43,666 nt of DNA from Candidatus Moraniibacteriota bacterium (GCA_029938745.1 JAOZUJ010000001.1:1-43666); one strand, 5' to 3'. Counted from the stretch's first letter, positions 8,041 through 43,450 are shown. Translations and numbers: made by a program. Notes: a model not told the origin generated them from the letters alone.

Positions 8041-8047
8041 TGTAATT

Positions 8048-8160: not shown

Positions 8161-8171
8161 ATCGTAACCAT

Positions 8172-8474: not shown

Positions 8475-8521
8475 GTTCAAATAAAATTGGACATTATAAA
8501 TGTTCTAATCGTTATAAACGT

Positions 8522-8553
8522 AAAAAACAGCAACAAGCCTCGTTGCTGTTTTT
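8522..8553. terminator. bidirectional intrinsic terminator between convergent DUF59 gene and ispG
   Basis: A-run, stem acagcaac / gttgctgt with a 7-nt loop, then T-run. Confidence 0.65.
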
Positions 8554-8560
8554 GATTGAT

Positions 8561-8593
8561 GAACATACCATGGTATGTTCAATGGTATGTTCA
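8561..8593. repeat. 20-nt perfect palindrome plus a tandem 12-nt direct repeat
   Basis: gaacataccatggtatgttc (8561-8580) is self-complementary; atggtatgttca occurs at 8570-8581 and again at 8582-8593. Confidence 0.8.
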
Positions 8594-8614
8594 TACACAA
8601 TAGTAACCAGGTTG

Positions 8615-9820: not shown

Positions 9821-9917
9821 ATAATATAGTGTTAATTCTTAACTCCTTACTTGTCTCCAATTTTATGTAAAATAAAGCATTTTGTCAAAATAAAAATATG
9901 CAAAATAAGTAAAATAA

Positions 9918-9926
9918 TGGTAAAAT
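9918..9926 (+). promoter_or_regulatory. extended -10 promoter element upstream of 9958..11037
   Basis: TGgTAAAAT (TG at 9918-9919, TAAAAT at 9921-9926). The same TGgTAAAAT motif lies upstream of gpmI. The -35 is weak. Confidence 0.4.
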
Positions 9927-9957
9927 ATACTTTGTAAATATAAAACCACAAATTAAA

Positions 9958-11612: not shown

Positions 11613-12563
11613 TTAAAAATCAATTTCAAGTGCCTCAAACCGACGTTTGTATTCTCCAAACACGATCGGACCATGTGGTTGTGGTAAAAAAATGAGATGT
11701 TCATCATTACATAAAATTAAAGCACCTTCTTTTTTTGTTTTTGGATTTTGCATGATCTTTTTTTGTTGTAATTTCTTTAATCTTTTTTCCATTGCCTTGT
11801 CAGCAAGAATCATTTCTCCAAATGATCGAATTGATCGTGTAATGATATTATCAAAAAGAGTCAATGTATGTATTGTATTATTACAACTATAATGTGGCTT
11901 ATATGCTTGAATCCACATATTTTTTTTGCAAAATTGTGAAAAATATTTTGTATCAAAAATTGGAATGATAAAAGCATACTCATGCGCTGCAAACAAATCA
12001 CGTGTTGGCACAGCAAGTGACTCTGTTGTAATGTGATAATTTAGACAAATACGATTATTTGTTTTATCATCATATCGTCGTACACCAAAAATATGTGAGA
12101 GTACTGTCATCATGAAACGCCCCGTCCAAATATGTCCAAATTTATACGCAATCAAAACATCCAGATCACTCCCACGCTCACAATTATGATATGAAAGTCT
12201 ACCCGTAACACAAATCATGCGTACAAACGGACTCACACGCAAAATAGACACAATGCGTCGCAATTTATGCATCTTTCGAAAACTGATATATTCTCGATCT
12301 CGTCTGGACTTCACCAATTTATCACGCCCAAACAGAAAATACATTCCATTTTTCTGATCAACATATTTCAATAAATCACAATCATTCAATGCCTCGACAA
12401 CCTGTGTCAACGACCATGTTTTAGTACTGTTATCTACACTACAACGAATCAAATGTTTCCATATTTCAAATGACGTTAGGGGATAATCCAAAACATCATA
12501 ATATGTTATTGTTGCAATAATATTTTTACACAAGATCTTATTCACATCATTTGAAAAAAACAA
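11613..12563 (-). CDS. hypothetical protein, possibly nucleotidyltransferase-fold
   Basis: 316 aa; RGSDLDVLI resembles the GS...DxD motif of pol-beta-type NTases; otherwise unrecognised. Confidence 0.4.
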   Translation of the reverse strand: MFFSNDVNKILCKNIIATITYYDVLDYPLTSFEIWKHLIRCSVDNSTKTWSLTQVVEALNDCDLLKYVDQKNGMYFLFGRDKLVKSRRDREYISFRKMHKLRRIVSILRVSPFVRMICVTGRLSYHNCERGSDLDVLIAYKFGHIWTGRFMMTVLSHIFGVRRYDDKTNNRICLNYHITTESLAVPTRDLFAAHEYAFIIPIFDTKYFSQFCKKNMWIQAYKPHYSCNNTIHTLTLFDNIITRSIRSFGEMILADKAMEKRLKKLQQKKIMQNPKTKKEGALILCNDEHLIFLPQPHGPIVFGEYKRRFEALEIDF

Positions 12564-12621
12564 AATGAATTATGCACAGCTGTGCATAAAACAATTCATA
12601 ATGTTTTTTTATTTTATCTTT

Positions 12622-15459: not shown

Positions 15460-15559
15460 ATATAATTAAAATAAATAGAAAATGAACCACATTAGTTACC
15501 AATGGTACAGCATTTTTGTCTTTTGGTCAACCGCAGCCCTGCGATACACGAGCATATAC

Positions 15560-15592
15560 AAAAAGTAACTTTCTTATAAAAAGTTACTTTTT
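15560..15592. terminator. AT-rich intrinsic terminator downstream of the giant gene
   Basis: Perfect 13-bp stem aaaaagtaacttt / aaagttacttttt with a 7-nt loop. Confidence 0.6.
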
Positions 15593-15638
15593 CTTTTGTG
15601 CTCTATTTTATATAAATCTTTACATCTATGTCATCAAT

Positions 15639-18600
15639 TTATTTCACTGAAGTGATTTTATCTTCTTTGATAACATCAACAATCCACCAATCCACCTGTA
15701 CATCCTCATCTGACTCTTGATTTAATCCAATGACAAAACTTTCACCATCAATAATGTTCTCAACGTGTGCAAAAATCGAACGGTCTGCATCCTTTACTGT
15801 AACAAATACATGACTATTTGCACGCACATCAGTTGTTTGAATAGATATTTCTAATGTGCCTTCTTTGATAACTACAGAGCCAATGTGTTGAGAATCTTCA
15901 TCTTCCATGACTGCAAATTTTCCCGTTGTTAATGCATCGGTTTCAATATCATCTGCAATGATCTTTGTTGCATTAAGTACACCGGCAAGTGTGAGGCCGC
16001 CTTCATCTGTTGTGTATAGAAGATTGTCTTCATCAAGTGCAATTAATAAATCTGTGAGACTTGTTTGTAATTCATCTATTGTGTCTACTTGTGTTTGCAT
16101 TAAACCTACTTTTGAATCTATTGAATCTAATAAATTTGATTGGTTATTTGCATCTTGTTGCATCTGTAAGACATTATCTTGCATTGTTCCATTTTCTGCT
16201 AATTGTGTTCCAAAGATCTTTGCTATTGTTGTAAGTTGTGTATCAATAGAGTCTTGTAATTGTGTGAGAGTCGAAATATTTGCATCTGTCTTTAATGTAT
16301 TTGATGTAATTGTGATATTTTGTTCCTGGATTGCACTTACTGTAAGTGGAATTATATCTGAATAAAACACTCCAAGTACTCCATTGTTTTCTCTCACTAC
16401 TTCTGGGATGACTGTTTGTAACTGCTGTGCCGAAAATCCTATTTTTTTATTTATTCCTACCTCACTATCTTTCCAATTATAACTAATTGGATTTATTTGC
16501 ATAAGCTCACTTAAACCATAATTAAGATTTGTAATGTTTTTCTTGAAATTTGTATCTGATGTTGTCATCACACCATTTGCAGAAAAAACTGTATGCCACC
16601 TCGCTGACCCCGATCCCAGCATCTGTGTTGCATCAGATGCGGGCACAACTTCATAAAGTGAACCGTTGCCAAGCATCATTTGATTTGATGCTGTTGGCTC
16701 TGCATTGTAACCAAGTGCTGTTGAATTTGTGTATACATTTTGATCTTCAAGATAATGTGCAACTGAGCCTTGTGATGTAATATTACCAATTTGATTACCC
16801 TCTGCTAACTCAAGTGTAGTTGTGTCAATAATCTTAAATTGATAAATACCATTGTTAGACAGTCCACCAGGTGGCGTACCTCCCGTTGTAAATCGTAAAT
16901 TTACATAATCCCCTGCATTACCAAAGCTATGTCCTGCCAGTGTAATTCTGTTAGTTGTCACATTAACACTACTGGGTGCAAATGTCTTAGGAGTTCCTGT
17001 ACCGTTAAAATTATTAAATGCTCCATCACCAACAGCAACATTATCATCTCCTTGATTATAAAGTAATGTGCCTCTACCTAATCCTATTACTTCCTCTCCT
17101 GTGTTATACCATAGAGAACTTCTGCCAAATCCAGAAGAATAATTACCAGTATTATTTCGAAGTGCGCCATATCCAAAACCTGAAGCACTATCAGAAGCAT
17201 TATTCATGAGAGCAAAGCTTCCAAATCCAGAAGCTGCTTGACTGGTATTATTATATAGAGCATTATATCCAAATCCAGAAGCATAATTTCCTGTATTACT
17301 TTGTAGAGCATTATATCCAAATCCAGACACATAATCAGCAGTGTTATCCGAAAGAGCATTTGCTCCAAATCCAGAAACATAAAGACCTGTATTGTCATAA
17401 AGTGCACTTGCCCCAAATCCAGAAGCTGCTCCACCAGTGTTATTTCGAAGCGCTTGATATCCAGCTCCAGTAGAATAAAGACCAGTGTTATTTTGTAAAG
17501 CATTGTACCCAACGCCAACTGAGCCCCATCCAGTATTACTTTGTAAAGAATTTACACCAAATCCTGCAGACTGACTACTGGTATGTGATTGCAATGCGTT
17601 GTGTCCAAATGCAACATTTTCATGTCCACTGACATTTGTATTTAATGCATTGATGCCAACTGCCGTATTGCTATTTGTTGTGAGATCATCATTTATACCC
17701 GCACCACTTCCGAGAAAGACACTTGTTGTCCCAGTAATTCCATCAGTAAGACCACTTATCGCACTTGCACCACCACCAGACGTAAATGACACCCAGCTCG
17801 ATCCATCATGCCCTTCAAAATCTGTACCAGTCCATCTGATCGATCCTGCATTTGTATTTGTGGTTGTACCTAAATTTATTGCACCAGCAACCTGTAAGTT
17901 TTCATTTGGCGTAATTGTTCCAATTCCCACATTTCCAGTTCCATTTTCTATCATGAGTCGAGTTAAGTTTTCATCTCTGAACATCAGATTTTCACCCTCA
18001 TCTATATCCTGATGAATTCTCCACTGTTGTGCAGTAAATGTATTTTCAAAATGATATGATGGATCCTTAACACCATCTGGTGATTCACTCTTGATCTGAC
18101 CTGCAACATGTAATTCCTTATTTGGATTATTCACATTACCAATAATCACGCTACTCATTGCATCTCCTGGGGCTAATCGTAAATGTTGCGTTCCTGGTCC
18201 AGTCGTGGCATATGTAGAAATTGTATTTGCATGAATCATCGTTCCTGCACTGCCAGCATATCCAAGTGCAGTACTGTTGACTGTTAAATCCCCTCCATGA
18301 ATAGATAAATTACCATCATTAACAGCTAATTTTGATGCAGATGGAATTAAACCAAATCCAAGAGGAGGCTCTGAACCAACAAACATTTGTCCATTATCAT
18401 TTATGATCATTTCAACTTGACTATCTCCATCTGAATCGAAACCTAAATAATTATCCGTTGTATCGTAACTAATAATACCCTCATTATGTTCCGCACCAAT
18501 ATGAAGCGAACTGGGGCCAAGATAAAGATCTTGCCATCTCAGAGATGATGTGCCTAAATTGTACGTATTATTTAATTCTGGAACAATATCTCCATCTACC

Positions 18601-20753
18601 TGTAACTTGTATTGAGGATTATCTGTGCCAATGCCAACGTGTCCAGAATGTTCAATAACAAAACTTTCTTCTCCATTACTACGATTGATAATTGAGAATC
18701 TGCCAGCATCCTGACCAGGTACAATCGCATCTGTAGCTAATGCTCTAAATCCCCATACACCTCCACCATCTGACTCCAAAATAATGTCAGCAGATTTAGG
18801 CTCATAAGGACCTGGCGGAGGATCTGCATTAGCTTTTACATGAAGCGTGGATAAAGGATTATCTGTTCCAATTCCCACACGTCCATATGGCGTAATTCTC
18901 ATCCTTTCTAAATTATCTGTTCCAAAAATAAGTGGATCAGCTTCATAATTACCAATGATCAAGCCATCTGGGCTTGTGTCACCTGGATTCGATGACCCCT
19001 CATCTCCTAAATTTACAATTTCACTATATCCAGCCAAAGTCGGCAATCCCCATCTCGTTCGCGCCCTCTCTGACCCATGAGCCAACATAGATACTCTTGA
19101 TGCATCTGAGATAACGCCCGTACTTGCAAAATTATTTACACCAAATGTTTGTGTCCATATCCGAGCATCCTGAGCCGTAATAGCATTTTTTGATACTTCA
19201 ATATCTGGACGACTTCTGCCATATGTTGGAAATGTCAACTCATGACTCACATCCCAATCACCGTGAAAATATCGTCCTGCATTTTCTAATGATACGTGTG
19301 GATTATTATCAGTGCCAATGCCAATGTTGCCATTGCCTTTAATAACCATACTATTTTTCATGATTCCATCTAAACCCTTTGTGACAAATTCTATACGACC
19401 AGGTATACCGTTTGTAAAATCACTACCATCAACACGCATACGAATTTGTGCTAATCGATTTAAACTATTACCTTCAAAAGCCATTGCATCTAGGGCTGTA
19501 ACTACATCGCCATTGTGTACTGCCAAGGGATTTTCACTAGTTCCTCTATATCGTTGACCTCCAAAGTAACTTCCCATCCATGGTGTATCTGAATGTGAAA
19601 CACCTGTAAAGCCAGAATGTTTACCGTCTAGCGATTGATGTGTAAACCCTCCTATTGATTTGATACGATCCTCTGCGTAAAGACTTATATTGTAATATTC
19701 AAAAGAAGCATCTGTAAAAATATTTAGTGTAGCGGCGTTAATGTACAATTCTGTATCTGACACGATCTTTCTAATTCCATATTCCCTTTCAATTCCCAAA
19801 TCATCTACAACTTTTAGAATTGTTGTTTTAGTTGTAAGTTCCGATAAAAAATGTGTTCCAATGCCAGTAACCTTCGCTGCACTATCTACAGTAATAGTTC
19901 CTGTTCCATTTTTTATATCTGATGGATTAATGTGCAATGATGCTTGCGGACTACTAGTCCCAATCCCTACATTTCCATCCTCAGTAATTCTCACTCTTTC
20001 AACTCCATTTGTTTTGAGGAGTAATGCATAATTATCATTTGTACCTAATTGTGCAATTTGTCCAAATGAATTACCATTTTGTGCAAAAAAATTACCATTA
20101 ACTACATCAGGGATTGGTTTGTTTATCCAACTTGTTCCATCAAAGTACATGATGTCTCCACTTGTTGGATTTTGTGATATTTCTACTCCATCAATATCTG
20201 TCATTGTAATTGTACTGCCTGCATTTCCACAGCTCCAATGATCTTTTTTTGCATTCCAATACAACATCTCGTTATCATTTTCACACTGGATTCTTCCTGA
20301 ACTTGATACTTTTAATCCTCCCTTATTTACTGTGCCAAAAACTGTTTTCGATGGTAATTTACATTCCCACTGATTTCTCCCTTTTTGCCATTGTAATACC
20401 CTGTCATCTTTTGTGCATTTGAGATAATTATCTTCTACTGTGACAGAATTTTCATCATAGAGAAAGTGTGGGGATGTGTTTACTTCTTTTATGTATATTT
20501 TTTGAGTTGTTGTATCTGTATTTTGTGCAATTTGCGTATCTTGTTGTTGTGTTGCATCTTGTTGTACTTGCTCTTGTGCACGTACACGTACATGATCCAT
20601 AAAACCGACCACAATTAATGTGATCACTAATGCAGTTGTGACTGTTTTGAAATGATATTGTTTTTTTATTCTTTGTTTTGTTTTGTATGTTGAACGTTCT
20701 TTATGTAAAAAGTTGGGAGATGCTATTTTCTTTTTATGCATAGGGAGATGCAT
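15639..20753 (-). CDS. giant (1704 aa) membrane-anchored tail-fibre-like surface protein with a peptidase-S74-type intramolecular chaperone module
   Basis: N-terminal basic region plus one TM/signal anchor (VTTALVITLIVVGF). Five G(N/R/H)(V/I)GIGT...L(H/Q)V motifs. About 14 tandem 16-aa GFGxNALxxNTGxxxS repeats. SDTNFKKNITNLNYGLSELMQINPISYNWKD...GFSAQQLQTVIPEVV matches the S74 chaperone-of-endosialidase signature. A coiled-coil region and a terminal beta-rich region follow. Confidence 0.85.
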   Translation of the reverse strand: MHLPMHKKKIASPNFLHKERSTYKTKQRIKKQYHFKTVTTALVITLIVVGFMDHVRVRAQEQVQQDATQQQDTQIAQNTDTTTQKIYIKEVNTSPHFLYDENSVTVEDNYLKCTKDDRVLQWQKGRNQWECKLPSKTVFGTVNKGGLKVSSSGRIQCENDNEMLYWNAKKDHWSCGNAGSTITMTDIDGVEISQNPTSGDIMYFDGTSWINKPIPDVVNGNFFAQNGNSFGQIAQLGTNDNYALLLKTNGVERVRITEDGNVGIGTSSPQASLHINPSDIKNGTGTITVDSAAKVTGIGTHFLSELTTKTTILKVVDDLGIEREYGIRKIVSDTELYINAATLNIFTDASFEYYNISLYAEDRIKSIGGFTHQSLDGKHSGFTGVSHSDTPWMGSYFGGQRYRGTSENPLAVHNGDVVTALDAMAFEGNSLNRLAQIRMRVDGSDFTNGIPGRIEFVTKGLDGIMKNSMVIKGNGNIGIGTDNNPHVSLENAGRYFHGDWDVSHELTFPTYGRSRPDIEVSKNAITAQDARIWTQTFGVNNFASTGVISDASRVSMLAHGSERARTRWGLPTLAGYSEIVNLGDEGSSNPGDTSPDGLIIGNYEADPLIFGTDNLERMRITPYGRVGIGTDNPLSTLHVKANADPPPGPYEPKSADIILESDGGGVWGFRALATDAIVPGQDAGRFSIINRSNGEESFVIEHSGHVGIGTDNPQYKLQVDGDIVPELNNTYNLGTSSLRWQDLYLGPSSLHIGAEHNEGIISYDTTDNYLGFDSDGDSQVEMIINDNGQMFVGSEPPLGFGLIPSASKLAVNDGNLSIHGGDLTVNSTALGYAGSAGTMIHANTISTYATTGPGTQHLRLAPGDAMSSVIIGNVNNPNKELHVAGQIKSESPDGVKDPSYHFENTFTAQQWRIHQDIDEGENLMFRDENLTRLMIENGTGNVGIGTITPNENLQVAGAINLGTTTNTNAGSIRWTGTDFEGHDGSSWVSFTSGGGASAISGLTDGITGTTSVFLGSGAGINDDLTTNSNTAVGINALNTNVSGHENVAFGHNALQSHTSSQSAGFGVNSLQSNTGWGSVGVGYNALQNNTGLYSTGAGYQALRNNTGGAASGFGASALYDNTGLYVSGFGANALSDNTADYVSGFGYNALQSNTGNYASGFGYNALYNNTSQAASGFGSFALMNNASDSASGFGYGALRNNTGNYSSGFGRSSLWYNTGEEVIGLGRGTLLYNQGDDNVAVGDGAFNNFNGTGTPKTFAPSSVNVTTNRITLAGHSFGNAGDYVNLRFTTGGTPPGGLSNNGIYQFKIIDTTTLELAEGNQIGNITSQGSVAHYLEDQNVYTNSTALGYNAEPTASNQMMLGNGSLYEVVPASDATQMLGSGSARWHTVFSANGVMTTSDTNFKKNITNLNYGLSELMQINPISYNWKDSEVGINKKIGFSAQQLQTVIPEVVRENNGVLGVFYSDIIPLTVSAIQEQNITITSNTLKTDANISTLTQLQDSIDTQLTTIAKIFGTQLAENGTMQDNVLQMQQDANNQSNLLDSIDSKVGLMQTQVDTIDELQTSLTDLLIALDEDNLLYTTDEGGLTLAGVLNATKIIADDIETDALTTGKFAVMEDEDSQHIGSVVIKEGTLEISIQTTDVRANSHVFVTVKDADRSIFAHVENIIDGESFVIGLNQESDEDVQVDWWIVDVIKEDKITSVK
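16325..16559 (-). other. peptidase S74-like autoproteolytic chaperone domain inside 15639..20753
   Basis: The Ser codon at 16557-16559 starts the SD(x)3K(x)NI...NPISYNWK...IGFSAQQLQ.VIPEVV pattern known from endosialidase/tail-spike C-terminal chaperone domains. Confidence 0.65.
17020..17670 (-). repeat. in-frame 48-nt (16-aa) tandem repeat block, about 13-14 units
   Basis: ccaaatcc-type unit starts at 17077, 17125, 17173, 17221, 17269, 17317, 17365, 17413, 17461, 17509, 17557 and 17605, exactly 48 nt apart. Confidence 0.85.
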
Positions 20754-32748: not shown

Positions 32749-33231
32749 ATGAAAGCAAATGAATTAAAAAAACTTCAGAAAACCACTAACCCTATCAGTG
32801 CATTTGCACAAAAGTTTGATGCTCATGCCAAAAAGCACGCGAAATCATTATGGTACGCACTACTTCTCTTAATCATCCTACTAATAACAGCAATGGTGGC
32901 AGGAGTTTGGTGTAATATTCACGGATATCGTGAAATAAATTATTACATTGCAATTGGCGTATTTATTGTGTCGTTGGTAATGTTCACGCGACCAGAATTG
33001 CTCATAGCATTGTTGAAAATGGATATCATAAATATGTTCGTTCCTCAAAAATTCCAACTGGATCTAGAGGATACCATACTCATGTCGTTTCTGCACATTG
33101 TGAAGCGTACAACTGCATTTTGTGTTGGTGCGTTTCTGTTTCTTGGATATATACCAATTAAGGATAGTGTGGAATTATTTATTCTATTATTAATTGGTTC
33201 AATCATATTTATTCTAATATACACCGAATAA
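32749..33231 (+). CDS. hypothetical 4-TM membrane protein (cassette A cargo)
   Basis: 160 aa; basic N-terminus then four hydrophobic helices; GGAG RBS. Confidence 0.55.
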   Translation: MKANELKKLQKTTNPISAFAQKFDAHAKKHAKSLWYALLLLIILLITAMVAGVWCNIHGYREINYYIAIGVFIVSLVMFTRPELLIALLKMDIINMFVPQKFQLDLEDTILMSFLHIVKRTTAFCVGAFLFLGYIPIKDSVELFILLLIGSIIFILIYTE

Positions 33232-33607: not shown

Positions 33608-34756
33608 ATGATGAATTGGATTACAAATACAGCCCAGGGTCTCGGACATACGGATTTTCCCATTAGTACGATATTATTTTATGCCGCTGTTATTACAGTA
33701 AGCGTGACCTTTATGATATTTATTGTATTAATAAAAATTATTCCGGTTTTTCGAAGAGGTGAAGAAGACCTGTATGAAAAAGCCACTAAGACCATACCAA
33801 CCGCCAATGGTAAAGGTTGTGAATTTGAGTTGAACAGAGCAAGTGTTTCAAATGAAATGAGCTTGTATGGCATATTGATGTTTTGCTTTATCTGTATTGC
33901 ATGTTTTGTATCGTATTTTTTTGGTGCAACAAACATGTTACTTATGGCCATTGCCAGTGGAGCTTTATGGGTAAATATTTACGTATCTGTCGGCTGGACT
34001 GAAGTACTCGCAAAAGAGTTTATTATTATTGAAGAATACGGAAATTTTAAACGCGCAATTCTACCAGGTCCTCGCATACTGTGTTTGCCTGGAATCGTTG
34101 ATAAAAAAACACATTTAGAGTACAGCACTAAAAGGGAGGGTATAAAGTTTTTTCAAGGTGAAATGACAAACTGTATGGTGGATTTTACGGATGGTTATTC
34201 TGCATCAACTGAAATGACTGTATATTTTGACATTGACAATCCGATATTATGGGTTTACCGAATTAACGAGGCAGTGGTATGGCTTGAAGATCAAATATTC
34301 CGCGTTGCACAGCAATGCCTAGAAGAAAAGGATTTAGCGTATGCAACTAGTCATAAAATACCTATCGCCAAAGATGTTCTTGGAATACACTTAAGACTTG
34401 GTGAAACAGAGGATACGCTAGAGAAGCAAGTCAACACGCAGCTTGGTATTAAACTCACCAGTTTTATTATCAATGACATTGATATTCCGCAAGAAATCAA
34501 AGATATGCGCATGGAAGAGCGGCGTGGTATTGTGGACAGCGAAAAGCGCGTTGCAAAAGCTAAGGGTTACGAGAAAGCCATTCAGGCAATCAGAGACACC
34601 TATGAAAAGATTTATGGAAAAGAGATGTCTCGTGATGATGCAAAGAAAGTGTATGACGAAAACCAAAATCGTGAAATGTTATCGGGTGCAAATGTAACGA
34701 TTATGGGTGGCGACATACAGAACATGGTCAAAACATTAATTGGAGGCAAAAAATGA
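33608..34756 (+). CDS. SPFH/band-7 (stomatin/flotillin-like) membrane protein
   Basis: 382 aa; N-terminal TM helices, then FIIIEEYGNFKRAILPGPRILCLPGIVDK and GIKLTSFIINDIDIPQEI typical of SPFH domains; C-terminal charged helical region. Confidence 0.8.
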   Translation: MMNWITNTAQGLGHTDFPISTILFYAAVITVSVTFMIFIVLIKIIPVFRRGEEDLYEKATKTIPTANGKGCEFELNRASVSNEMSLYGILMFCFICIACFVSYFFGATNMLLMAIASGALWVNIYVSVGWTEVLAKEFIIIEEYGNFKRAILPGPRILCLPGIVDKKTHLEYSTKREGIKFFQGEMTNCMVDFTDGYSASTEMTVYFDIDNPILWVYRINEAVVWLEDQIFRVAQQCLEEKDLAYATSHKIPIAKDVLGIHLRLGETEDTLEKQVNTQLGIKLTSFIINDIDIPQEIKDMRMEERRGIVDSEKRVAKAKGYEKAIQAIRDTYEKIYGKEMSRDDAKKVYDENQNREMLSGANVTIMGGDIQNMVKTLIGGKK

Positions 34757-35037: not shown

Positions 35038-35045
35038 AAACAAAA

Positions 35046-35078
35046 GCACAGCGCGTTATACAACGCCCTGTGCTTTTT
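35046..35078. terminator. bidirectional terminator (duplicated copy 2) between cassette B and the pilin array
   Basis: gcacagcgcgtt / aacgccctgtgc stem; T-run on the + side, and an A-run upstream gives a T-run for the minus strand. Confidence 0.7.
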
Positions 35079-35117: not shown

Positions 35118-35714
35118 TTATTGCACAACATTCACAACCTGTGTCACAATGATCAATGCCATGATAGCAATAATCAATCCAATAATTGCATACTTGATTA
35201 TATTTTTTGCTGTATCTGCACGTGTTGAATCACCCCCTGATACCATATACATAATTCCACCCACGACAAGCATGAGAACTGATAATGCACCCACAAGTCC
35301 TGATGCCACCTTTATTGTGCTTATAATAATGTCTGACAGTGATTTTGTAGCTGTAACAGGATTGTTTACATCTGATTCAGTTATCTGAAAAATTTCTGAC
35401 AAAAATGCTGGTGCGGCGAGTGCTAATGCGAGACCAATAAGTGCAGCTGTCACTGCCTTTTTTGCAAGTTCAACACGACCACTATCTCCACCTGACGTAA
35501 TATATAAAATACCACCTACCACAATCATGAGAACTGCTAATGCTGCAACAATATTTTGTACTCCCACCAACACAGCTCCAAGAAAATCATTCACATTGCC
35601 GTAACCAATTGGATTGTCAAATGTTTGTGCATAAATATCCCCCACAAAAAACGATGCGTACAATACTATTGCAAAACTTGGTACAATTAAATATCGTAAA
35701 TATTCTTTTTTCAT
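35118..35714 (-). CDS. VirB2/TrbC-like pilin paralog, fused two-domain form
   Basis: 198 aa; signal peptide (ASFFVGDIYAQT). Two copies of the core: LAVLMIVVGGILYITSGGDSGRVELAKKAV... and LSVLMLVVGGIMYMVSGGDSTRADTAKNII... Confidence 0.75.
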   Translation of the reverse strand: MKKEYLRYLIVPSFAIVLYASFFVGDIYAQTFDNPIGYGNVNDFLGAVLVGVQNIVAALAVLMIVVGGILYITSGGDSGRVELAKKAVTAALIGLALALAAPAFLSEIFQITESDVNNPVTATKSLSDIIISTIKVASGLVGALSVLMLVVGGIMYMVSGGDSTRADTAKNIIKYAIIGLIIAIMALIIVTQVVNVVQ

Positions 35715-35744
35715 ATATGTTTTATTATTTTTTATTTTTATTAT

Positions 35745-36083
35745 TTATACAATTCCAAGTGCTTCACTAATAAAATACACGATCATATACGAAACCAATG
35801 CCACAATAAGTCCTACGATTGAATATGTTAGCATTTTTTTTGCTGTCTCTGTACGTGTTGAATCCCCGCCTGATGTGATGTACATTATGCCAGATACAAT
35901 AATCATAAGAACTGCTAACGAGGCAAGAAATGCAAGAAAAAAATTAATCATATCTCTTATAACTGTATTTATGTCTGTTTGTGTTGCAAGTCCGTGATTG
36001 TCTGTTGGCCTCTTTGCTTGTGCACTCACAAAAATAGGTACTAGAAGTATTGTTGATAAAATTGTAAAAAAAATATTTTTCAT
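35745..36083 (-). CDS. VirB2/TrbC-like pilin paralog
   Basis: 112 aa; signal peptide ending VSAQA; core LAVLMIIVSGIMYITSGGDSTRTETAKKMLTYSIVGLIVAL. Confidence 0.75.
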   Translation of the reverse strand: MKNIFFTILSTILLVPIFVSAQAKRPTDNHGLATQTDINTVIRDMINFFLAFLASLAVLMIIVSGIMYITSGGDSTRTETAKKMLTYSIVGLIVALVSYMIVYFISEALGIV

Positions 36084-36117
36084 AACTCTTATAAATAATT
36101 GATAAAAGTATTATAAC

Positions 36118-36450
36118 TTACCATGCGCCGAGCTTATCTCCAATCACCGTTACAATAACATAAGCGAGTAATGCAACAACAAGACCTGCAATTGAATATG
36201 TTAACATTTTTTTTGCTGTTTCCGCTCTTTGTGTATCGCCTCCTGATGTTATGTACATAATACCAGATATTATGATCATCAATATTGCCAATGATGCAAT
36301 GATACCTGCTACAAGGTCAATTATATCTCCGATAAGTGCATCAGCATTAATTTCATTTGCTAATCCATGCTGACCAGGCTTAGTTAATGCATTTGTAGTC
36401 ACGGGCAAGGCAATAATTGTACAAAAAATTGCATAAAAAATCTTTTTCAT
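36118..36450 (-). CDS. VirB2/TrbC-like pilin paralog
   Basis: 110 aa; signal peptide; core LAILMIIISGIMYITSGGDTQRAETAKKMLTYSIAGLVVAL. Confidence 0.75.
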   Translation of the reverse strand: MKKIFYAIFCTIIALPVTTNALTKPGQHGLANEINADALIGDIIDLVAGIIASLAILMIIISGIMYITSGGDTQRAETAKKMLTYSIAGLVVALLAYVIVTVIGDKLGAW

Positions 36451-36477
36451 AATTTTATTTTATTATTTATATTATGT

Positions 36478-36843
36478 TTAATTCCACGTACCACCAACAG
36501 TTGTGCCGATGAGTATAACAATCGCATAGGCCAGCACTGCTATAACAAAACCAATAACAGCATATACCATAATTTTTTTAGCTGTTTCTGCTCTTTGTGC
36601 ATCACCGCCTGAAGTCATATACATTATACCAGATATTACAATCATCAACACAGCTAAACTTGCAATAATCACCGCCACAAAACCAACCATTTTTTCAATG
36701 ACTGGTAGAATATAATTATCATTGGTGGCTGTCCCCCCTGGCAAGCCAGTGTCTCCGCTGCTTGGCACTGTGATTTGCGCATTGACGATTTGTGGCAACA
36801 CAACAATCACCAGTGCACCAAGTATATAAAAATATTTTTTCAT
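36478..36843 (-). CDS. VirB2/TrbC-like pilin paralog
   Basis: 121 aa; signal peptide ending VNAQ; core LAVLMIVISGIMYMTSGGDAQRAETAKKIMVYAVIGFVIAV. Confidence 0.75.
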   Translation of the reverse strand: MKKYFYILGALVIVVLPQIVNAQITVPSSGDTGLPGGTATNDNYILPVIEKMVGFVAVIIASLAVLMIVISGIMYMTSGGDAQRAETAKKIMVYAVIGFVIAVLAYAIVILIGTTVGGTWN

Positions 36844-36853
36844 ATTATTTTTT

Positions 36854-36901
36854 TATTTTTCATATATGTATTATACACCATACAAAACAAAAAAACAAAG
36901 A
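36854..36901 (-). repeat. 48-nt duplicated promoter module, copy 1
   Basis: Identical to 37333-37380. On the minus strand it carries TTGTTT (36893-36898), 17 nt, TATAAT (36870-36875). Confidence 0.6.
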
Positions 36902-36929
36902 CTGTGTACCATACACGTCTTTGTTTTTT
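36889..36929 (-). terminator. terminator after pilin gene 36951..37301
   Basis: caaagac(t)gtgta / tacacgtctttg stem (36896-36923) flanked by an A-run and a T-run. Confidence 0.65.
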
Positions 36930-36950
36930 GTTTTTATTTTTTTGTCATGC

Positions 36951-37301
36951 TTATACTCCAAGCATAGCACTTACTGTCTTTACAATTACATAACTGAGGA
37001 GTGCCACAATTAAGCCAACAATTGAATATGTAAGCCATTTTTTTGCTGTTCCAATTCGAGATTCATCGCCACCAGATGTGATGTACATAATTCCAGCAAC
37101 AACAATCATCAGTACTGACAATGATGCAAGAAATGCCAAAAACCAGTTGATAGCAGAAACAATAATATCATTTACATTTGTTGAATCTGGCAATGATCCT
37201 GGATTTGAACTCCCTGGATCATATTGTGCACCGACAATACTTGGCACTATAAGTACCATTGCTGTCATTGCATAAAATGCATTTTTTATTTTTTTTATCA
37301 T
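36951..37301 (-). CDS. VirB2/TrbC-like pilin paralog
   Basis: 116 aa; signal peptide ending VGAQ; core LSVLMIVVAGIMYITSGGDESRIGTAKKWLTYSIVGLIVAL; strong GGGAGG RBS. Confidence 0.75.
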   Translation of the reverse strand: MIKKIKNAFYAMTAMVLIVPSIVGAQYDPGSSNPGSLPDSTNVNDIIVSAINWFLAFLASLSVLMIVVAGIMYITSGGDESRIGTAKKWLTYSIVGLIVALLSYVIVKTVSAMLGV

Positions 37302-37332
37302 TTTTGAGCACCTCCCTTCTTTGTTTTTATTT

Positions 37333-37380
37333 TATTTTTCATATATGTATTATACACCATACAAAACAAAAAAACAAAGA
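37333..37380 (-). repeat. 48-nt duplicated promoter module, copy 2
   Basis: Identical to 36854-36901; TATAAT at 37349-37354 and TTGTTT at 37372-37377 on the minus strand. Confidence 0.6.
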
Positions 37381-37424
37381 TGCGGCATAATATGTATCTT
37401 TATTTTGCATACTGTTTGAGTATG

Positions 37425-37694
37425 TTAAACAAAACCAACAATCGTTTTTACAATGATGAGTGATAAAATAGCAATTGATAAACCAATAACACCTGCCCAC
37501 AATGCCTTTTTTGCTGTTTGCACACGATTTGCATCCCCACCAGATGTCATGTACATAATGCCCGCAACAACAATTACCAGCACAGCAATAACACCAACGA
37601 GCGTAACAACAAATTGTAGCACACTCATCACGAGACTACTGAGTTTTGGGGCTGTATCTAGCGGGCCTGCCTGCACAATGTTAATTAGTCGCAT
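37425..37694 (-). CDS. VirB2/TrbC-like pilin paralog lacking an N-terminal signal peptide
   Basis: 89 aa; core IAVLVIVVAGIMYMTSGGDANRVQTAKKALWAGVIGLSIAI; begins 13 nt after the upstream stop with no obvious RBS. Confidence 0.6.
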   Translation of the reverse strand: MRLINIVQAGPLDTAPKLSSLVMSVLQFVVTLVGVIAVLVIVVAGIMYMTSGGDANRVQTAKKALWAGVIGLSIAILSLIIVKTIVGFV

Positions 37695-37707
37695 AAATTA
37701 TTTATAA

Positions 37708-38148
37708 TCAATTTGTTGGACATGTAAATGTCCACATCCTGCCAAATATTGGCACATCTAATCCTCCCTCACTTACAACGCTCGTTTTGTTGAATACAGT
37801 GTTCAATAAAAATGTAATAATTAAAAATGCTGTCAACATAATTATAAGGCCAATGAGAGCATTTTTTATAGCCGATTTTGCCATTGTTGTCATTTGCTGA
37901 TTTCCTGCTGAACTAATATATATAATACCTGCAACAACAATCACTACAATCGCAGCAACTGCCATAATATTTTTGAAAAAATCAATGATATTCCACATAC
38001 CTTGTGCAAGTTCACAGATTGTACAAGCATCCACATCTGTACCTGTAACATTATTGCCGCACGGCACAATATTTGCTTGTGCATTATATAATGGAACCAT
38101 TATAAAAAGTAAAGCAAAACTCAATAAAAATATTCTCACAAATTTCAT
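37708..38148 (-). CDS. divergent Cys-containing VirB2/TrbC-like pilin paralog with C-terminal extension
   Basis: 146 aa; signal peptide ending YNAQA; CGNN...C..C in the mature N-terminus. The core is changed to VVAGIIYISSAGNQQMTTMAKSAIKNALIGL. Extra 35-aa tail ends FTCPTN. Confidence 0.65.
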   Translation of the reverse strand: MKFVRIFLLSFALLFIMVPLYNAQANIVPCGNNVTGTDVDACTICELAQGMWNIIDFFKNIMAVAAIVVIVVAGIIYISSAGNQQMTTMAKSAIKNALIGLIIMLTAFLIITFLLNTVFNKTSVVSEGGLDVPIFGRMWTFTCPTN

Positions 38149-38214: not shown

Positions 38215-39618
38215 TTATTTCATCAATTGTTGCGTCCTTCTTGCGCCCAGGTCAACTGCATCATGTACAGACGACTTTCCCGTGTTTACACTGTCGATCA
38301 TTTCAGCAAAGATTGCATCAACTGCAATTGCACTGTTGCGCCACCATGTCTGTGCGATCAAATTCCCTCGCGCAAATGACCCAAGTCTCACATCATCTAC
38401 TTGTTCTTGCACAAGATCTCGCCGTGCTGCTGGCTTCCCTGTTTCTTCAAGATATTTTTTGGTAAAATCAAACTTTGTTTGAAATATTAATGCTTCTTTA
38501 TTCAATCCATTCGTCAGAAGGATACCCTTTTCACTTGGAAATGTCATTGCAATTAATAATTGCCATGCTTCATGAATACGCATCTCATTTGTAATTGGTC
38601 TCGCGTCTTTTGATGATGGTTGTGTAGGTTGCTTATTTTTTGCAACTACAAAAGTCCAATAATTTGCAAAATTCGCCTGTTCTCCAATTGTATCAAAAGA
38701 AACCTGTGGCAAATCAGCAACAGCAAAATTTAATTTTGCGTTTTTTGCCTCAATTGTGTCATAGTGCCATGAATAATTAATCATCATTGCAGCATTACCT
38801 TCAAAAAACTCATCAATCGAATAATTTTGATTTTTATTCCATGTATAAACTGGCTCTACCGCTGACGCAAAATCTGTATAATATTTCAATGCTTGTTCAC
38901 CTGGTACGACTGCCTTACCGTCTTTTTGTACTGGTTCTGCAAATGTCACCCTCTTTGTTGTTGGATCTGACATTTCTGCACTATTTTGTATCATCATTGC
39001 CGTTAAAATATCAGTTGATCGATTTACATTAAATGCTGTACCAATCGCTGCTGCACTTTGATCTATATTACCAAATTCATCAATGTTCGTTAACTTCTTT
39101 ACAACTTCATCAAATTCATCCCATGTTTTTGGTGGTTGTGTGACACCAGCTGCATTAAAAATATCCTTATTATAATATAGAGCAAGCGAATCAACAGAGA
39201 GTGGGACTCCATACATTTTTCCATCCAACACAAAATCATCAGCCACAACGTCTACAAAATTATAACGAAAATCTTGTTCGCTCATCATATATTCTGGGAT
39301 TGGTTCAATTTTATCTTGAAAGTCTGGAAACCACGAATTATGAATCATAAAAATATCTGGACCAGTGCCAGATGCTAAGGCATTAAGTAAATCCTCTTTA
39401 TATGAGTCGATTGTGTATTTACGATAATTCACATTACTAACATTGTCATTAATGCTCCTGTATGCAAGTAATATTTCATTGTATGCACTAGTATTATCAA
39501 ACACGCCCCATATATCAAGTTTTGTCTCATAAGCCTGATTCTCTGTTTTCAGTCCACAACCAGACAAAAATACTATTGAGCAGATTACGAGAATACTAAC
39601 AAAATTTTTCATATACAT
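38215..39618 (-). CDS. lipoprotein, ABC-type extracellular solute-binding protein (family 1-like)
   Basis: 467 aa; lipobox FLSGCG; overall family-1 SBP-like sequence (GTGPDIFMIHNSWFPDF...); no permease or ATPase gene adjacent. Confidence 0.75.
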   Translation of the reverse strand: MYMKNFVSILVICSIVFLSGCGLKTENQAYETKLDIWGVFDNTSAYNEILLAYRSINDNVSNVNYRKYTIDSYKEDLLNALASGTGPDIFMIHNSWFPDFQDKIEPIPEYMMSEQDFRYNFVDVVADDFVLDGKMYGVPLSVDSLALYYNKDIFNAAGVTQPPKTWDEFDEVVKKLTNIDEFGNIDQSAAAIGTAFNVNRSTDILTAMMIQNSAEMSDPTTKRVTFAEPVQKDGKAVVPGEQALKYYTDFASAVEPVYTWNKNQNYSIDEFFEGNAAMMINYSWHYDTIEAKNAKLNFAVADLPQVSFDTIGEQANFANYWTFVVAKNKQPTQPSSKDARPITNEMRIHEAWQLLIAMTFPSEKGILLTNGLNKEALIFQTKFDFTKKYLEETGKPAARRDLVQEQVDDVRLGSFARGNLIAQTWWRNSAIAVDAIFAEMIDSVNTGKSSVHDAVDLGARRTQQLMK

Positions 39619-39630
39619 ATTTTCATTAAA

Positions 39631-40203
39631 TTATTTTGTAAAAATAAAAGCATAATGATACTCCCCAGCATCAATTTCTTGTGCTCCCATAAAACCACCC
39701 TTTGTTGCAAATTCTTGCACACTTTCTTTATCTAATCTCTCACTTGTTCCAAATCCTGCAATCACTTCTTTATCCCATCCAACCACAAGTAATTTGCCAT
39801 TACCAGTTAAAACACGACATGCCTCGCTAAAGAGGACTTCTTTATCATTATTTTGTAAAAGGATCTTACGCATAATTACATGCTCCATAGCACCATCATC
39901 CAAACCGGACCCGCCTATTTTTTCAAGATTTACCCGACGCGTCACAATATTATTTAAGCCACCTGTTTGTGCTCTGCTATTTACCGCCTCAAGTGCCGAC
40001 TCCAACACATCAAAACAGTACACAGTTCCCTCCGTCATACGCGCAATCGGAATTGAAAAAATACCAGGTCCACACCCAAAATCAGCAACATCATCATCTT
40101 TTTTAATGTCACAAACTGTAAGTAATTTTTCTGGTTCTAAAATTGCCTCATTTTCATCCATATTTTTATTTTTGTGTTTTAATACTTTATTATTATACCA
40201 CAA
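39631..40203 (-). CDS. class I SAM-dependent methyltransferase
   Basis: Motif I VADFGCGPGIFS; the true start may be the internal MDENEA. Confidence 0.8.
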   Translation of the reverse strand: MWYNNKVLKHKNKNMDENEAILEPEKLLTVCDIKKDDDVADFGCGPGIFSIPIARMTEGTVYCFDVLESALEAVNSRAQTGGLNNIVTRRVNLEKIGGSGLDDGAMEHVIMRKILLQNNDKEVLFSEACRVLTGNGKLLVVGWDKEVIAGFGTSERLDKESVQEFATKGGFMGAQEIDAGEYHYAFIFTK

Positions 40204-41245: not shown

Positions 41246-43450
41246 TTAGAAATCTTCTGGCATGTCCTCTTTCTTATTATCTTTACGACTATTCCTAATC
41301 TCCTCATAAGTAGTATCTAAAGCCTTACTTGCATCTAGCTTTGCTTGATCAAAATCTACTCTAACCAACAAAGGTCGTTCACTTTTAATTGCTTTGCCAG
41401 AAGCAAGAAACTCTCTAGTTCTTAGGTTAGGAATAGCTTTAACATGTTCTGGACTATACACACCACCTAAATAATCAAGGCTTGTTTTATCTACGAGCCC
41501 ATAAGTGAAATATGTATTACATTGAGACAATATTGTCTTACTTACCAAGGCTGTGCGTTGAGACACAATAAGTAATCCAACACCATACTTTCGACCCTGT
41601 AGTGCAATTTGACCAATTCGACCAACAACCCACTGTGTATCAGCATCAAACCCAGCACTGTAGACTTCAGGTATGATTGTGTGGGCTTCCTCAAGAACAA
41701 TCATTATCCTCCTTGCTTTTCGATTCTCACGGGCCCACCTCATTATCGATGATAAATACATCTCGGTGATTCTTAATGTTGCTCGTGTGTTTGTTATTTC
41801 TGACAATTCAAAAATACCAAGATTGTTTTCTTCACTCATTAAGAAATCATCAACTTGTTTTTCAACGTCTGATTCAATAGTTTTAAGAAACTCTTGTAAT
41901 GTGGCTCGTTCTTTTTTAGCACCATACTCTCCAACAGCGACAGCCTGGAGTACCTCCTCCAGTTCTTCAATTTTTTCTTCAGACAACCTGAGTGGTTGTG
42001 GTTTTGAATCTGCTAATCTTGGTGCATATTCCCCAGTAAAATCGACACAAAAAACCTTAACTTCTTCACTGAGAGCATTTTTTATAACATCTAATACAAG
42101 TTCAGTTTTACCAGTACCAGTTACACCTAATATTGCGGCGTGGTACTCAACAAGGTTATTTAAATCTATAGGAACTTCAAAACTAGTTGATGGTATTTTG
42201 CCTACAGTGAAGTTGCCTTTTTCCATTTTTTGTTCAAGAACATCATCTTTATCGACCAAAAACACAGGCTGATTCATTTCTGGTAACCATGCAAACTTTT
42301 GAAATCCGTGCTCCTCATCAAAAGAGCCTAACTGTGAAGTAGAAACAATGTGCATTCCATAAGGACTGGTTTGAAAATTCTCTTCATCTGTTTTTGCATC
42401 TAGTATTTGATAGTAAACTTTTTTACCTTGAACTTTACAGAAAACAACCATACCCTCTTCAAGGTTAAGCCCTCTTACAACCTGAAATCTTATATTTCCT
42501 ATAGAAGAGTTTTCAACAACCAAACCCGCGATTTCTTTTGTTTTATCTTCGCCACTCAAAGTTTTGACCAGCTCTTTGGATAACTCGGAGTTCATGCTCG
42601 CATAAACATTACCAAAGAGTATTTCTTTATTATTTTCATCACTATATTCACACAACAACCCTGTTCCTACTACTCCCTCATTCTGAACTTGCGTAAACAA
42701 TGGCAGTATGTGAACTATTTTGTTATTAGATAATTGAGATACATACACTTTTCCATGTTCCCATGATGTCTCTGTATCAATTAGATTAACCTTTACTATA
42801 TTTGGGTCATCAACACGTAATATTGAACCCACCACATCTTTTTCCTCTATAATTAACGCTGTACTGAATAATTTATATATTTGCAAAGTAAGTTCAACTG
42901 GTTTAATAACAACCATAAATAACCAAAAGCCCATTATCAAAAGAGCTGTATCAATTTTATCTTGATAGAACCCAAGCGAGCTTATTAAAACAACCATTGT
43001 AAAGAGTATCTCCCCTCTTCCAAGTTTATTACTTAGTTGGTATGTAATTATGCCAACTGGCGATTGTTGTCCGTCACTTCTTTTAAAAATAGCAACTAGG
43101 GATAGTATTACAACGACTAAAGATATGCCGATAGCAACCCAATACAATATTGAGAGAACTATTGTAAAATGTTTGACAGATACCAAGCTGACGGGAGCTA
43201 GTATAAGGATAGTTGCAATTGCATTTGCGAGGGCATCTTTTGGCGGAGTAAAGAAAGGAGTTGTGACTAGAGTAAACAACCAATATGTTACTGCTGCCAA
43301 CAGCCATAAACCTTGTTCTGTACCAAATGGAGAAAGAGTTCCAGTGGCTACAACAAAAACAATAATAGCTAACACAGTATTTGCGACAAAAACACCCACA
43401 CGAGACTTTTGTTTTAAATTGTCTATTGCTGTATTAGAAATCATAATCAT
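41246..43450 (-). CDS. membrane-anchored HerA/FtsK-superfamily (DUF87-like) P-loop ATPase
   Basis: 734 aa; N-terminal about 200 aa with roughly five hydrophobic helices. Walker A GVTGTGKT (about 42103-42126); Walker B IMIVLEEAH (about 41681-41707), where the EEAH form is characteristic of HerA-type ATPases. Confidence 0.75.
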   Translation of the reverse strand: MIMISNTAIDNLKQKSRVGVFVANTVLAIIVFVVATGTLSPFGTEQGLWLLAAVTYWLFTLVTTPFFTPPKDALANAIATILILAPVSLVSVKHFTIVLSILYWVAIGISLVVVILSLVAIFKRSDGQQSPVGIITYQLSNKLGRGEILFTMVVLISSLGFYQDKIDTALLIMGFWLFMVVIKPVELTLQIYKLFSTALIIEEKDVVGSILRVDDPNIVKVNLIDTETSWEHGKVYVSQLSNNKIVHILPLFTQVQNEGVVGTGLLCEYSDENNKEILFGNVYASMNSELSKELVKTLSGEDKTKEIAGLVVENSSIGNIRFQVVRGLNLEEGMVVFCKVQGKKVYYQILDAKTDEENFQTSPYGMHIVSTSQLGSFDEEHGFQKFAWLPEMNQPVFLVDKDDVLEQKMEKGNFTVGKIPSTSFEVPIDLNNLVEYHAAILGVTGTGKTELVLDVIKNALSEEVKVFCVDFTGEYAPRLADSKPQPLRLSEEKIEELEEVLQAVAVGEYGAKKERATLQEFLKTIESDVEKQVDDFLMSEENNLGIFELSEITNTRATLRITEMYLSSIMRWARENRKARRIMIVLEEAHTIIPEVYSAGFDADTQWVVGRIGQIALQGRKYGVGLLIVSQRTALVSKTILSQCNTYFTYGLVDKTSLDYLGGVYSPEHVKAIPNLRTREFLASGKAIKSERPLLVRVDFDQAKLDASKALDTTYEEIRNSRKDNKKEDMPEDF

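Follow-up and report, generated by a model that had tools for sequence, protein, structure and literature searches.

The window analyzed here is an entire contig of 43,666 bp from Candidatus Moraniibacteriota (Moranbacteria, Patescibacteria), which carries at 35118-38148 an array of seven consecutive and intact minus-strand genes for small pilin-like proteins, with eight hairpin domains in total. The seven genes comprise five old, position-conserved classes, designated A to E, plus two extra D-type copies, and they are not interchangeable. The array is best explained as a chromosomal operon cluster for a fixed, ordered set of VirB2-like subunits, which would build a heteromeric type IV secretion system (T4SS)-type filament or conduit from specialized parts; a probability of roughly 0.55 is attached to this explanation. 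A heteropolymeric filament had already been proposed in an earlier note on this DNA, beside antigenic or host-range diversification. The former proposal fits the evidence better than the latter and is carried forward here as an interpretation.

Ordered subunit classes in the array

The genes, numbered g1 to g7 in Table 1, are transcribed in the order g7, g6, g5, g4, g3, g2, g1. Each has its own start codon and an unbroken frame, and the list of open reading frames (ORFs) agrees with the earlier note on seven minus-strand genes of 89-198 aa. Hydropathy and alignment describe a layout of signal peptide, variable segment, first transmembrane helix (TM1), short loop, second transmembrane helix (TM2), and tail. 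An N-terminal hydrophobic signal-like segment and two transmembrane (TM) segments per domain are observed, with four TM segments in g1 and no leader in g6. The common architecture described in the earlier note is therefore supported by these analyses, except that g6 lacks a signal peptide and that a signal peptide ending in A-Q is found in only five of the seven genes. The loop had been called invariant, which does not hold: the loop of g7, SSAGNQQMTTMAKS, is divergent (SSAGNQQ), and invariance across all eight domains is confined to eight loop-centered columns (G, I, Y, S, G, A, K, G). Pairwise identities of the eight domains average 51% in TM1, 61% in the loop, and 40% in TM2, and fall to 14% in the signal peptide, 16% in the pre-TM region, 10% in the tail, and 8% in the exposed N-segment, so that the contrast between a conserved core and variable ends is confirmed among the paralogs. 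Protein identity of the paralogs is 25-36% to the first domain and reaches 55-56% among g2, g3, and g5. As DNA, the cores make up a repeat family of eight copies with identities of 61-73%, and no coding tract exceeds about 73%. A degenerate codon motif for MY[IM]TSGGD occurs seven times, always in the array, against 0.05 expected by chance, and the exact sequence ATGTACAT occurs four times in the window, all within the array. Conservation of the core in the DNA itself, also claimed previously, is hence seen in the recurring codon motif, while overall identity is moderate.

The order of the classes was surveyed with class hidden Markov models (HMMs), by which 69 complete arrays were recognized; related loci number about 70 in all. 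The complete arrays hold a median of five genes (range 2-9) in the canonical order A B C D..E, and a more distant subgroup displays the order A E (E) C D D. The window, with A B C D D D E, lies toward the larger end of the array-size distribution. Copy number varies only for class D and, in other genomes, for class C. In seven syntenic loci, the order begins with a methyltransferase, a solute-binding protein (SBP), a VPCG...CxxC pilin of about 145 aa, and a leaderless pilin of 88-89 aa, followed by a “MIKKIKNAFY” pilin, one to three “GITAPSGTGLP”-type pilins, a di-pilin, divergent small genes, and NusA-Tig-ClpP. The homologs and syntenic loci bear the titles Candidatus Moraniibacteriota or Moranbacteria. 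In a neighbor-joining tree of the core region, class A forms a clade with 94% bootstrap support and the first di-pilin domain a clade with 91%. The second di-pilin domains and most of class B group visually, with low bootstrap values as clades (3% and 10%). The cores of classes C and D cluster by genome; within the window, the g3 core groups with g4 and the g2 core with g5. A separate observation concerns the more distantly related locus L009, in which two 123-aa pilin genes (5746-6117 and 6386-6757) are nearly identical, as are two di-pilin genes (7920-8729 and 9575-10570), with two Cys/Pro/Arg-rich ORFs between them. These pairs suggest recent duplication in that lineage, or perhaps assembly or frameshift artifacts.

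The individual classes differ in character. In class A, g7 combines a signal peptide, a Cys-rich exposed N-segment (VPCG...CTIC), the loop SSAGNQQ, and a long C-tail ending W..F.C. Four cysteines (C30, C42, C45, and C143) are invariant in 10 homologs, and because they are split between the N-segment and the C-tail, both parts are placed on the same extracytoplasmic side. The AlphaFold2 model of class A has a predicted local distance difference test (pLDDT) score below 50 in the Cys-bearing parts, and no disulfide geometry can therefore be claimed. A supposed g7 homolog with 99% identity (P0121) was discarded as a contig-truncated copy of the same sequence. Class B is leaderless: g6 begins 13 nt past the g7 stop, its orthologs of 88-89 aa occupy the same position in most related loci, and a signal peptide is absent from all of them. 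In most loci, A and B are 9-19 nt apart, with wider gaps in L005 (63 nt) and L007 (183 nt). Fusion of g7 and g6 by TGA recoding or readthrough was ruled out, as an in-frame TAA follows two codons on and the ATG of g6 lies in a different frame. In class D, g4 carries the motif ITVPSSGDTGLP after its signal peptide, and motifs of the GITAPSGTGLP type are found in the positional orthologs of L003 and L005-L008. In class E, g1 consists of a signal peptide and two complete hairpin domains, between which lies a linker of about 24 aa (residues 108-131). This architecture is conserved, with about 100 homolog clusters of about 200 aa covering most of its length, and relatives of g1 are encoded in at least 95 species-level genomes.

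In related arrays, the hairpin is also joined in frame to other modules. An SLT (VirB1-like) lytic transglycosylase is fused to it at the first array position in L008 (6365-7528), L046 (3874-4944), and L074 (3024-4145), InlB B-repeats in L038 (422-2536), PKD in L089 (7524-8930), and large unknown domains in L021, L026, L072, and L091. Because of these in-frame fusions, the hairpin is considered to double as an anchor for enzymes and adhesin-like modules.

Expression signals and sequence evolution

Expression signals single out class C. The promoter-like module TTGTATGGTGTATAATACATATATG at 37340-37364 precedes g5, together with an A-rich leader and the Shine-Dalgarno (SD) sequence AAGGGAGGTG. 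Exactly two copies of this 25-nt module are present in the window against zero expected. Because a generic sigma-70 scan of the window gave no enrichment (14 found against 18.8 expected), promoters were called solely from the conserved TATAAT-containing module. In the compared loci, a TATAAT-containing box always lies ahead of class C, and another TATAAT box ahead of class D. An SD of the GGAGGTG type ahead of class C is kept in L003, L006, L007, L008, and L011; in most of the 69 arrays, a strong SD marks the first C-type gene, and the other pilin genes are without it. A hairpin equivalent to the g5 terminator lies 3' of the class C gene in L003, L005, L006, L008, and L011, and a terminator follows the last array gene in L003 and L005-L008, this gene being the di-pilin except in L007, where it belongs to class D. 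No hairpin was found between the SBP gene and g7. From these signals, the likely transcription units are methyltransferase-SBP-g7-g6, g5, and g4-g3-g2-g1, with g5 appearing to form a monocistronic unit. The regions upstream of g4 and g5 also share an 83-nt intergenic repeat of 83% identity (36845-36927 and 37324-37406, minus strand), in which a core of about 50 nt is identical. A terminator tail and a TATAAT promoter-like box are combined in this repeat, while the adjacent g4 and g5 coding DNA, diverged to saturation, is only about 55% identical; the element is either strongly constrained or else recently homogenized.

Class C is also the most conserved protein of the neighborhood. Compared with its ortholog in L011, g5 is identical at 116/116 amino acids with 29 synonymous differences (synonymous divergence, dS, 0.47; ratio of non-synonymous to synonymous rates, omega, 0.01). 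Taken with its dedicated expression signals, class C looks like the candidate major subunit.

Table 1. Features of the pilin-like array and its immediate surroundings in the window.
Feature	Coordinates	Strand	Evidence
g7, class A pilin-like, 146 aa	37708-38148	-	PF18895 41.6 bits
g6, class B pilin-like, 89 aa, without signal peptide	37425-37694	-	PF18895 35.2 bits
g5, class C pilin, 116 aa	36951-37301	-	PF18895 38.7 bits
g4, class D pilin, 121 aa	36478-36843	-	PF18895 38.2 bits
g3, class D-like extra copy, 110 aa	36118-36450	-	PF18895 46.8 bits; D by class HMMs
g2, class D-like extra copy, 112 aa	35745-36083	-	PF18895 39.8 bits; D by class HMMs
g1, class E di-pilin, 198 aa, two domains	35118-35714	-	PF18895 74.2 bits
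Weak terminator-like hairpin and U-run 3' of g6	37358-37411	-	-13.3 kcal/mol, z = -2.4
Promoter-like module, A-rich leader, and strong Shine-Dalgarno ahead of g5	37302-37364	-	Putative promoter function
Strong intrinsic-terminator hairpin and U-run 3' of g5	36884-36934	-	-21.6 kcal/mol, z = -5.0; 0/200 shuffles fold as well
Second identical promoter-like module, upstream of g4	36861-36885	-	Repeat and exact-match scans
Terminator hairpin closing the array	35042-35077	-	-23.6 kcal/mol, z = -3.9; also by consensus scan
Lipoprotein-type solute-binding protein SBP_bac_1, upstream neighbor	38215-39618	-	Pfam match
Small SAM methyltransferase, upstream neighbor	39631-40203	-	Conserved in 44 related loci

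Selection was estimated from the two closer relatives, L010 and L011. Per-site estimates among the paralogs and the first ortholog set, as suggested previously, proved unusable because synonymous sites are saturated (proportion of synonymous differences, pS, 0.5-0.87). Close-ortholog data are available for classes A, B, C, and E and, within class D, for 80 codons of g4 plus a 43-codon stretch of a g2-like gene, with g3 outside their coverage. Values of omega are 0.24 for A (g7), 0.23 for B (g6), 0.16 for D (g4), and 0.12 for E (g1), and about 0.10 for the g2-like fragment against L010, where dS is saturated. The neighboring SBP and methyltransferase genes give 0.06 and 0.08, respectively. Purifying selection is evident in each class covered by these data, and clear positive selection is found in none. 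The possibility that the array consists of redundant duplicates, of which one copy matters while the others drift toward pseudogenes, is accordingly very remote. It could draw on the low identity of the paralogs to the first domain, but none of the seven frames is interrupted, each class is retained through orthologs in at least 69 arrays, and omega remains at 0.01-0.24 in classes A to E and near 0.10 for the g2-like gene.

Divergence is not uniform along the proteins. In the pooled close orthologs, omega is 0.27 in exposed segments against 0.08 in cores (Fisher p = 1.4e-5), and in g7 compared with L011 the changes gather in the exposed ends. In g1, omega is 0.03-0.06 in the cores and about 1.8 in the linker, the latter arising from small counts (13.5 non-synonymous against 2.5 synonymous changes). 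The excess variation expected in the exposed segments is thereby found among close orthologs as well as among paralogs. Such a pattern is what would be anticipated if the paralogs were alternative versions of one surface subunit, switched or recombined for antigenic or host-range variation, as the earlier note had suggested and as has also been floated, by analogy with the VirB2 paralogs of Anaplasma and Bartonella, in PMC12102498. The low conservation of N-segments and tails, the high omega of the di-pilin linker, the different copy numbers of classes D and C between genomes, and the near-identical gene pair in L009, indicative of recent duplication, all point in that direction. On the other side, the classes are ancient and their positions are kept across the lineage, each copy is a complete ORF with its own start codon, and overall omega is well under 1 in each class tested. 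The g5 protein, including its exposed segment, is invariant against a relative at dS 0.47. Neither silent cassettes nor recent conversion tracts were found in the array, nor were invertible or recombination elements: synonymous sites of the paralogs are saturated (pS 0.54-0.70), and core DNA identity stays at or below 73%. Two further metagenomic contigs are 100% identical to the window. Antigenic or host-range variation is therefore regarded as improbable, the faster evolution of the exposed ends being the part of that suggestion which stands.

The clustering of C and D cores by genome was considered separately. It had suggested concerted evolution, but pS within genomes (0.51-0.73) is barely below that between genomes (0.57-0.87), so that recent gene conversion is unsupported. 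Old conversion or co-adaptation may have produced this grouping, and the two are indistinguishable.

Pilin family, assembly machinery and gene neighborhood

All seven proteins exceed the gathering cut-off of PF18895 (T4SS_pilin, 26.6 bits), with scores of 35-74 bits, and the 198-aa g1 matches in two stretches. The architecture of this family, a signal peptide followed by a two-TM hairpin with a short polar loop, is observed throughout, save for g6 and its orthologs, which have no signal peptide. For PF04956 (TrbC/VirB2, cut-off 27.9 bits), g1 is the sole protein above the cut-off (33.9 bits). The proteins g2-g6 lie below it at 20.1-26.4 bits (E = 8e-6 to 7e-4), the six proteins g1-g6 together spanning E = 4e-8 to 7e-4, and no match to g7 was obtained at E <= 1. 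As measured by these profiles, the similarity to PF04956 is homology-level, and curated membership applies to g1 alone; a profile search with this family had been recommended in the earlier note, and six of the seven proteins are matched by it. Against NF045849 (Mbov_0395 pilin-like conjugal transfer, NCBIfam), g1, g2, and g7 score about 26 bits, where 40 bits are needed to reach the cut-off. When plasmids were searched by tblastn, a single match was obtained, a megaplasmid gene of the Mbov_0395 family from Pontibacillus. This gene itself passes PF18895, and alignment of the window-family profile with its protein by hhalign gave 97.8% probability (E = 7.5e-13, 76 columns). The VirB2/TrbC-type assignment and the T4SS_pilin family, which the earlier note had named, are thus confirmed by these comparisons.

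The Pontibacillus relative also provides a genomic context. In a T4SS cluster at 11713-18027 of plasmid NZ_CP062975.1 of Pontibacillus sp. ALD_SL1 (L092), two PF18895-type genes lie upstream of VirB6-like, PrgI-like, and VirB4-like genes; the genes beside the pair encode a TrbL/VirB6-like protein, a PrgI/TraL-like protein, a VirB4-like ATPase of the CD1110 family, and a peptidoglycan endopeptidase. Because this relative sits in a T4SS cluster, the family is physically tied to monoderm-type T4SSs outside the candidate phyla radiation (CPR), which suggests that CPR pilins may share ancestry with monoderm systems. The two-pilin cluster fits poorly with a statement in PMC12102498 that Gram-positive T4SS classes lack VirB2 homologues. 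In terms of structure, the AlphaFold2 model of the di-pilin has a mean pLDDT of 79.7 and contains helices at 41-73, 78-112, 126-158, and 163-197, that is, two hairpins. The net charge of the loops is +1 to +2, and that of the N-segments is -3 to +1.

On the basis of these properties, the following assembly route is proposed. The Sec pathway and signal peptidase I, cleaving after Ala and mostly between A and Q, would bring the subunits into the membrane, where both subunit ends would face outward and the basic loop (TSGGDxxRxxxAKK) would be cytoplasmic. The leaderless class B would be inserted uncleaved. Extraction and polymerization of the subunits would then fall to a VirB4-type T4SS whose genes would lie elsewhere in the genome, giving a surface filament or an envelope-spanning conduit whose lumen would be lined by the loop, with the N- and C-segments outside. 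Class C would form the bulk, and classes A, B, D, and E would act as low-abundance specialized subunits (initiation, tip, adaptor, base). Faster evolution of the exposed ends, with gain and loss of D copies, would tune contact with the host surface. The product may be an extended pilus, a short conduit across the envelope, or a complex within the membrane.

Several results weigh against a filament or conduit. None of the T4SS components VirB3/PrgI, VirB4, VirB6, and VirB8 was found in the 43.7-kb contig, and no T4SS component occurs among the conserved neighbors within 7-10 kb at about 70 related loci. A 734-aa protein at 41246-43450 (minus strand), in which about six TM segments at the N-terminus are combined with a DUF87/HerA-type ATPase domain, was examined as a possible VirB4 and rejected: it is of the HerA type, matches no VirB4 model, and is absent from all syntenic loci, including L011. 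A Foldseek search of the di-pilin model against the PDB gave no significant match (best E = 0.14, generic helical bundles), a comparison for which a bare helical hairpin is non-discriminating, and the family profile detected no solved pilin among PDB sequences, only spurious MacB TM matches. Since no solved pilin is detectable, the pilin fold is assigned only from HMM similarity and predicted topology. The role of g5 as major pilin is read from sequence signals and conservation alone. Class B displays the reverse of the general pattern, with a core more variable than the N-terminus. Finally, experiments have so far revealed no pilus in any of the Patescibacteria, and the role of the T4SS in Saccharibacteria has been called “completely unknown” (PMC11665869). 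With regard to the machinery, it should be noted that in the published Table S1 most Moranbacteria genomes are marked VirB4-positive, among them the genome from which L046 derives, whose array has the same order as that of the window; a location elsewhere in the genome is therefore probable for the T4SS machinery.

An alternative is that the proteins remain in the membrane and form no filament. The hairpins would then belong to a monoderm T4SS, as its hetero-oligomeric channel or as part of a stalk, or would serve as a generic two-helix anchor for the display of extracellular domains, and might act in uptake together with the co-transcribed solute-binding lipoprotein. The closest relative outside the CPR lies in a Firmicutes T4SS cluster, no T4SS genes are nearby in the window, and hairpins of related arrays are fused to SLT, PKD, InlB-repeat, SBP, and large unknown domains. 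Moreover, the SBP gene is the most constant neighbor of the array, with no terminator before g7. The similarity to the TrbC/VirB2 model is, however, significant, and a dedicated, extremely conserved g5 with predicted high expression suits a polymer rather than an anchor. Adjacency of the SBP gene could also reflect the conserved gene order of the region, in which NusA, Tig, and ClpP are conserved too, and just one fusion of SBP and pilin was observed. A purely membrane-resident function is for these reasons judged unlikely, and the heteromeric filament or conduit is preferred. The latter might be developed further: the five dedicated classes, among them a covalently linked di-pilin and a cap or base subunit locked by disulfides, machinery encoded apart, and a co-transcribed orphan SBP, could together form an organelle for nutrient capture or host contact. 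This extension is tentative and doubtful. To our knowledge, characterized T4SSs have one major pilin plus VirB5, and no counterpart to such an organelle is known among them.

The neighborhood itself is well conserved. Clustering of flanking ORFs in related loci identified the SBP gene in 58 (always upstream and on the same strand), the methyltransferase in 44, NusA in 44, trigger factor in 38, pyrophosphatase in 30, and ClpP in 29. No ABC permease gene adjoins the SBP gene. The single fusion, in L019, joins SBP and a pilin domain in one in-frame ORF of 602 aa. From its position, the SBP gene may be co-transcribed with the array; any functional link is conjectural. The stretch separating the array from nusA contains two divergently oriented membrane-protein genes at 33608-34756 and 32749-33231 (plus strand). 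In L006, a counterpart of the 382-aa protein with 28% identity gives a weak Band_7/SPFH match, and counterparts of the 160-aa protein occur in L003, L004, L005, and L010; variable unknown genes fill this slot in all loci. The 734-aa ATPase matches Pfam DUF87 and, weakly, TrwB_AAD_bind, its best NCBIfam and PDB matches are of the HerA type, and weak matches to the DNA-import proteins CedB and CedD were also obtained; a scan of the genome collection with this protein found nothing.

The remaining genes of the contig are housekeeping genes, including those for UvrA, NusA, trigger factor, ClpP, RNase Y, and iPGM, and nothing was returned when the window was scanned for tRNAs and against Rfam. A 1704-aa protein (15639-20753, minus strand), encoded between the genes for UvrA and an M17 aminopeptidase, contains a Peptidase_S74 (endosialidase chaperone) domain at residues 1399-1454 and, at the very end, a K1-lyase C-terminal domain at residues 1624-1692, a phage tail-fiber-like architecture in a CPR chromosome. 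Genes of the methylerythritol phosphate isoprenoid pathway, for DXP synthase and IspG (GcpE), lie at 2404-4266 and 8615-9820 (minus strand), and Fe-S assembly genes for a cysteine desulfurase and a NifU-like protein are also present, representing biosynthetic capacity in a reduced CPR genome.

Comparison with known systems

Arrays of this kind have been described in Patescibacteria. In Quinonero-Coronel 2025 (PMC12102498), 441 VirB2 arrays of 2-11 pilin genes are reported from 383 Patescibacteria assemblies, with a within-array identity of 25% on average and 54% at maximum, pilins near virB4 in 1135 of 1948 assemblies, and a proposed role in adaptation to host strains by analogy with Anaplasma and Bartonella. 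The window array agrees with the published definition, which asks for at least two divergent PF18895/PF04956 genes in Patescibacteria, in tandem or one gene apart. As in the arrays described there, tandem same-strand genes of these families lie in a CPR chromosome with no relaxase nearby, and divergence is similarly strong (25% to about 56% in the window). The six-gene pilin array of Ca. Southlakia epibionticum ML1 is described as essential in Wang et al. 2023 (PMC10633639), and a 2025 review regards it as remarkable for a monoderm (PMC12857230). The Southlakia array adjoins or lies within a virB4 cluster, unlike that of the window. The window array differs from published ones in its fixed housekeeping neighborhood of methyltransferase, SBP, array, NusA, Tig, and ClpP, and the class order and the leaderless, Cys-rich, and di-pilin members do not appear in the retrieved passages of PMC12102498 and PMC10633639. 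The tandem VirB2 paralogs of Anaplasma and Bartonella are likewise several and divergent, with variation thought to affect surface interactions (as cited in PMC12102498); those bacteria are, however, diderm intracellular animal pathogens, whereas the window copies are ordered classes under purifying selection, with no evidence of switching found.

The significance of the array follows from the epibiotic life of Patescibacteria, for which the T4SS and the pilin array are essential in the only genetically tractable member. From the present locus, the array of a further large lineage of the CPR can be read as a conserved, ordered parts list and not simply as many paralogs: one probable major subunit, one fused double, one leaderless, and one Cys-rich subunit. 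Testable predictions are opened concerning subunit stoichiometry, the subunit to image or label, and the exposed segments that possibly set host specificity. Furthermore, the link to pilin-like proteins of Firmicutes and Mycoplasma suggests that CPR pilins could have come with a monoderm-type T4SS and not have been co-opted from diderm systems.

Among the better known protein families, the VirB2/TrbC/TraA pilins (PF04956) share with the window proteins a signal peptide, a two-helix hairpin, a short basic loop, termini predicted to face outward, and a significant sub-threshold HMM similarity. They differ in that six of the seven window proteins lie under the PF04956 cut-off, that similarity to solved pilins is not detectable, and that the window host is a monoderm with many paralogs in place of one major pilin plus VirB5. 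The Mbov_0395 proteins of monoderm integrative and conjugative elements and plasmids have a homologous hairpin with a ...YITSxGD...AK... loop (hhalign, as above), and the Pontibacillus member, which passes PF18895, has a second pilin-like gene beside it. At 26 against 40 bits, the window proteins are relatives and not members of that family, and the Firmicutes genes lie inside a T4SS cluster, unlike those of the window. In type IV pili and type II secretion pseudopili, one abundant and several conserved low-abundance subunits are encoded together, some with extra domains. The resemblance of the window array to these systems is a functional analogy only, as fold and assembly machinery are unrelated. 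The kind of feature is thus already published. Its class structure, its di-pilin, its probable major subunit, its position apart from the T4SS genes, and its connection with pilin-like proteins of Firmicutes and Mycoplasma are useful refinements and not a new system.

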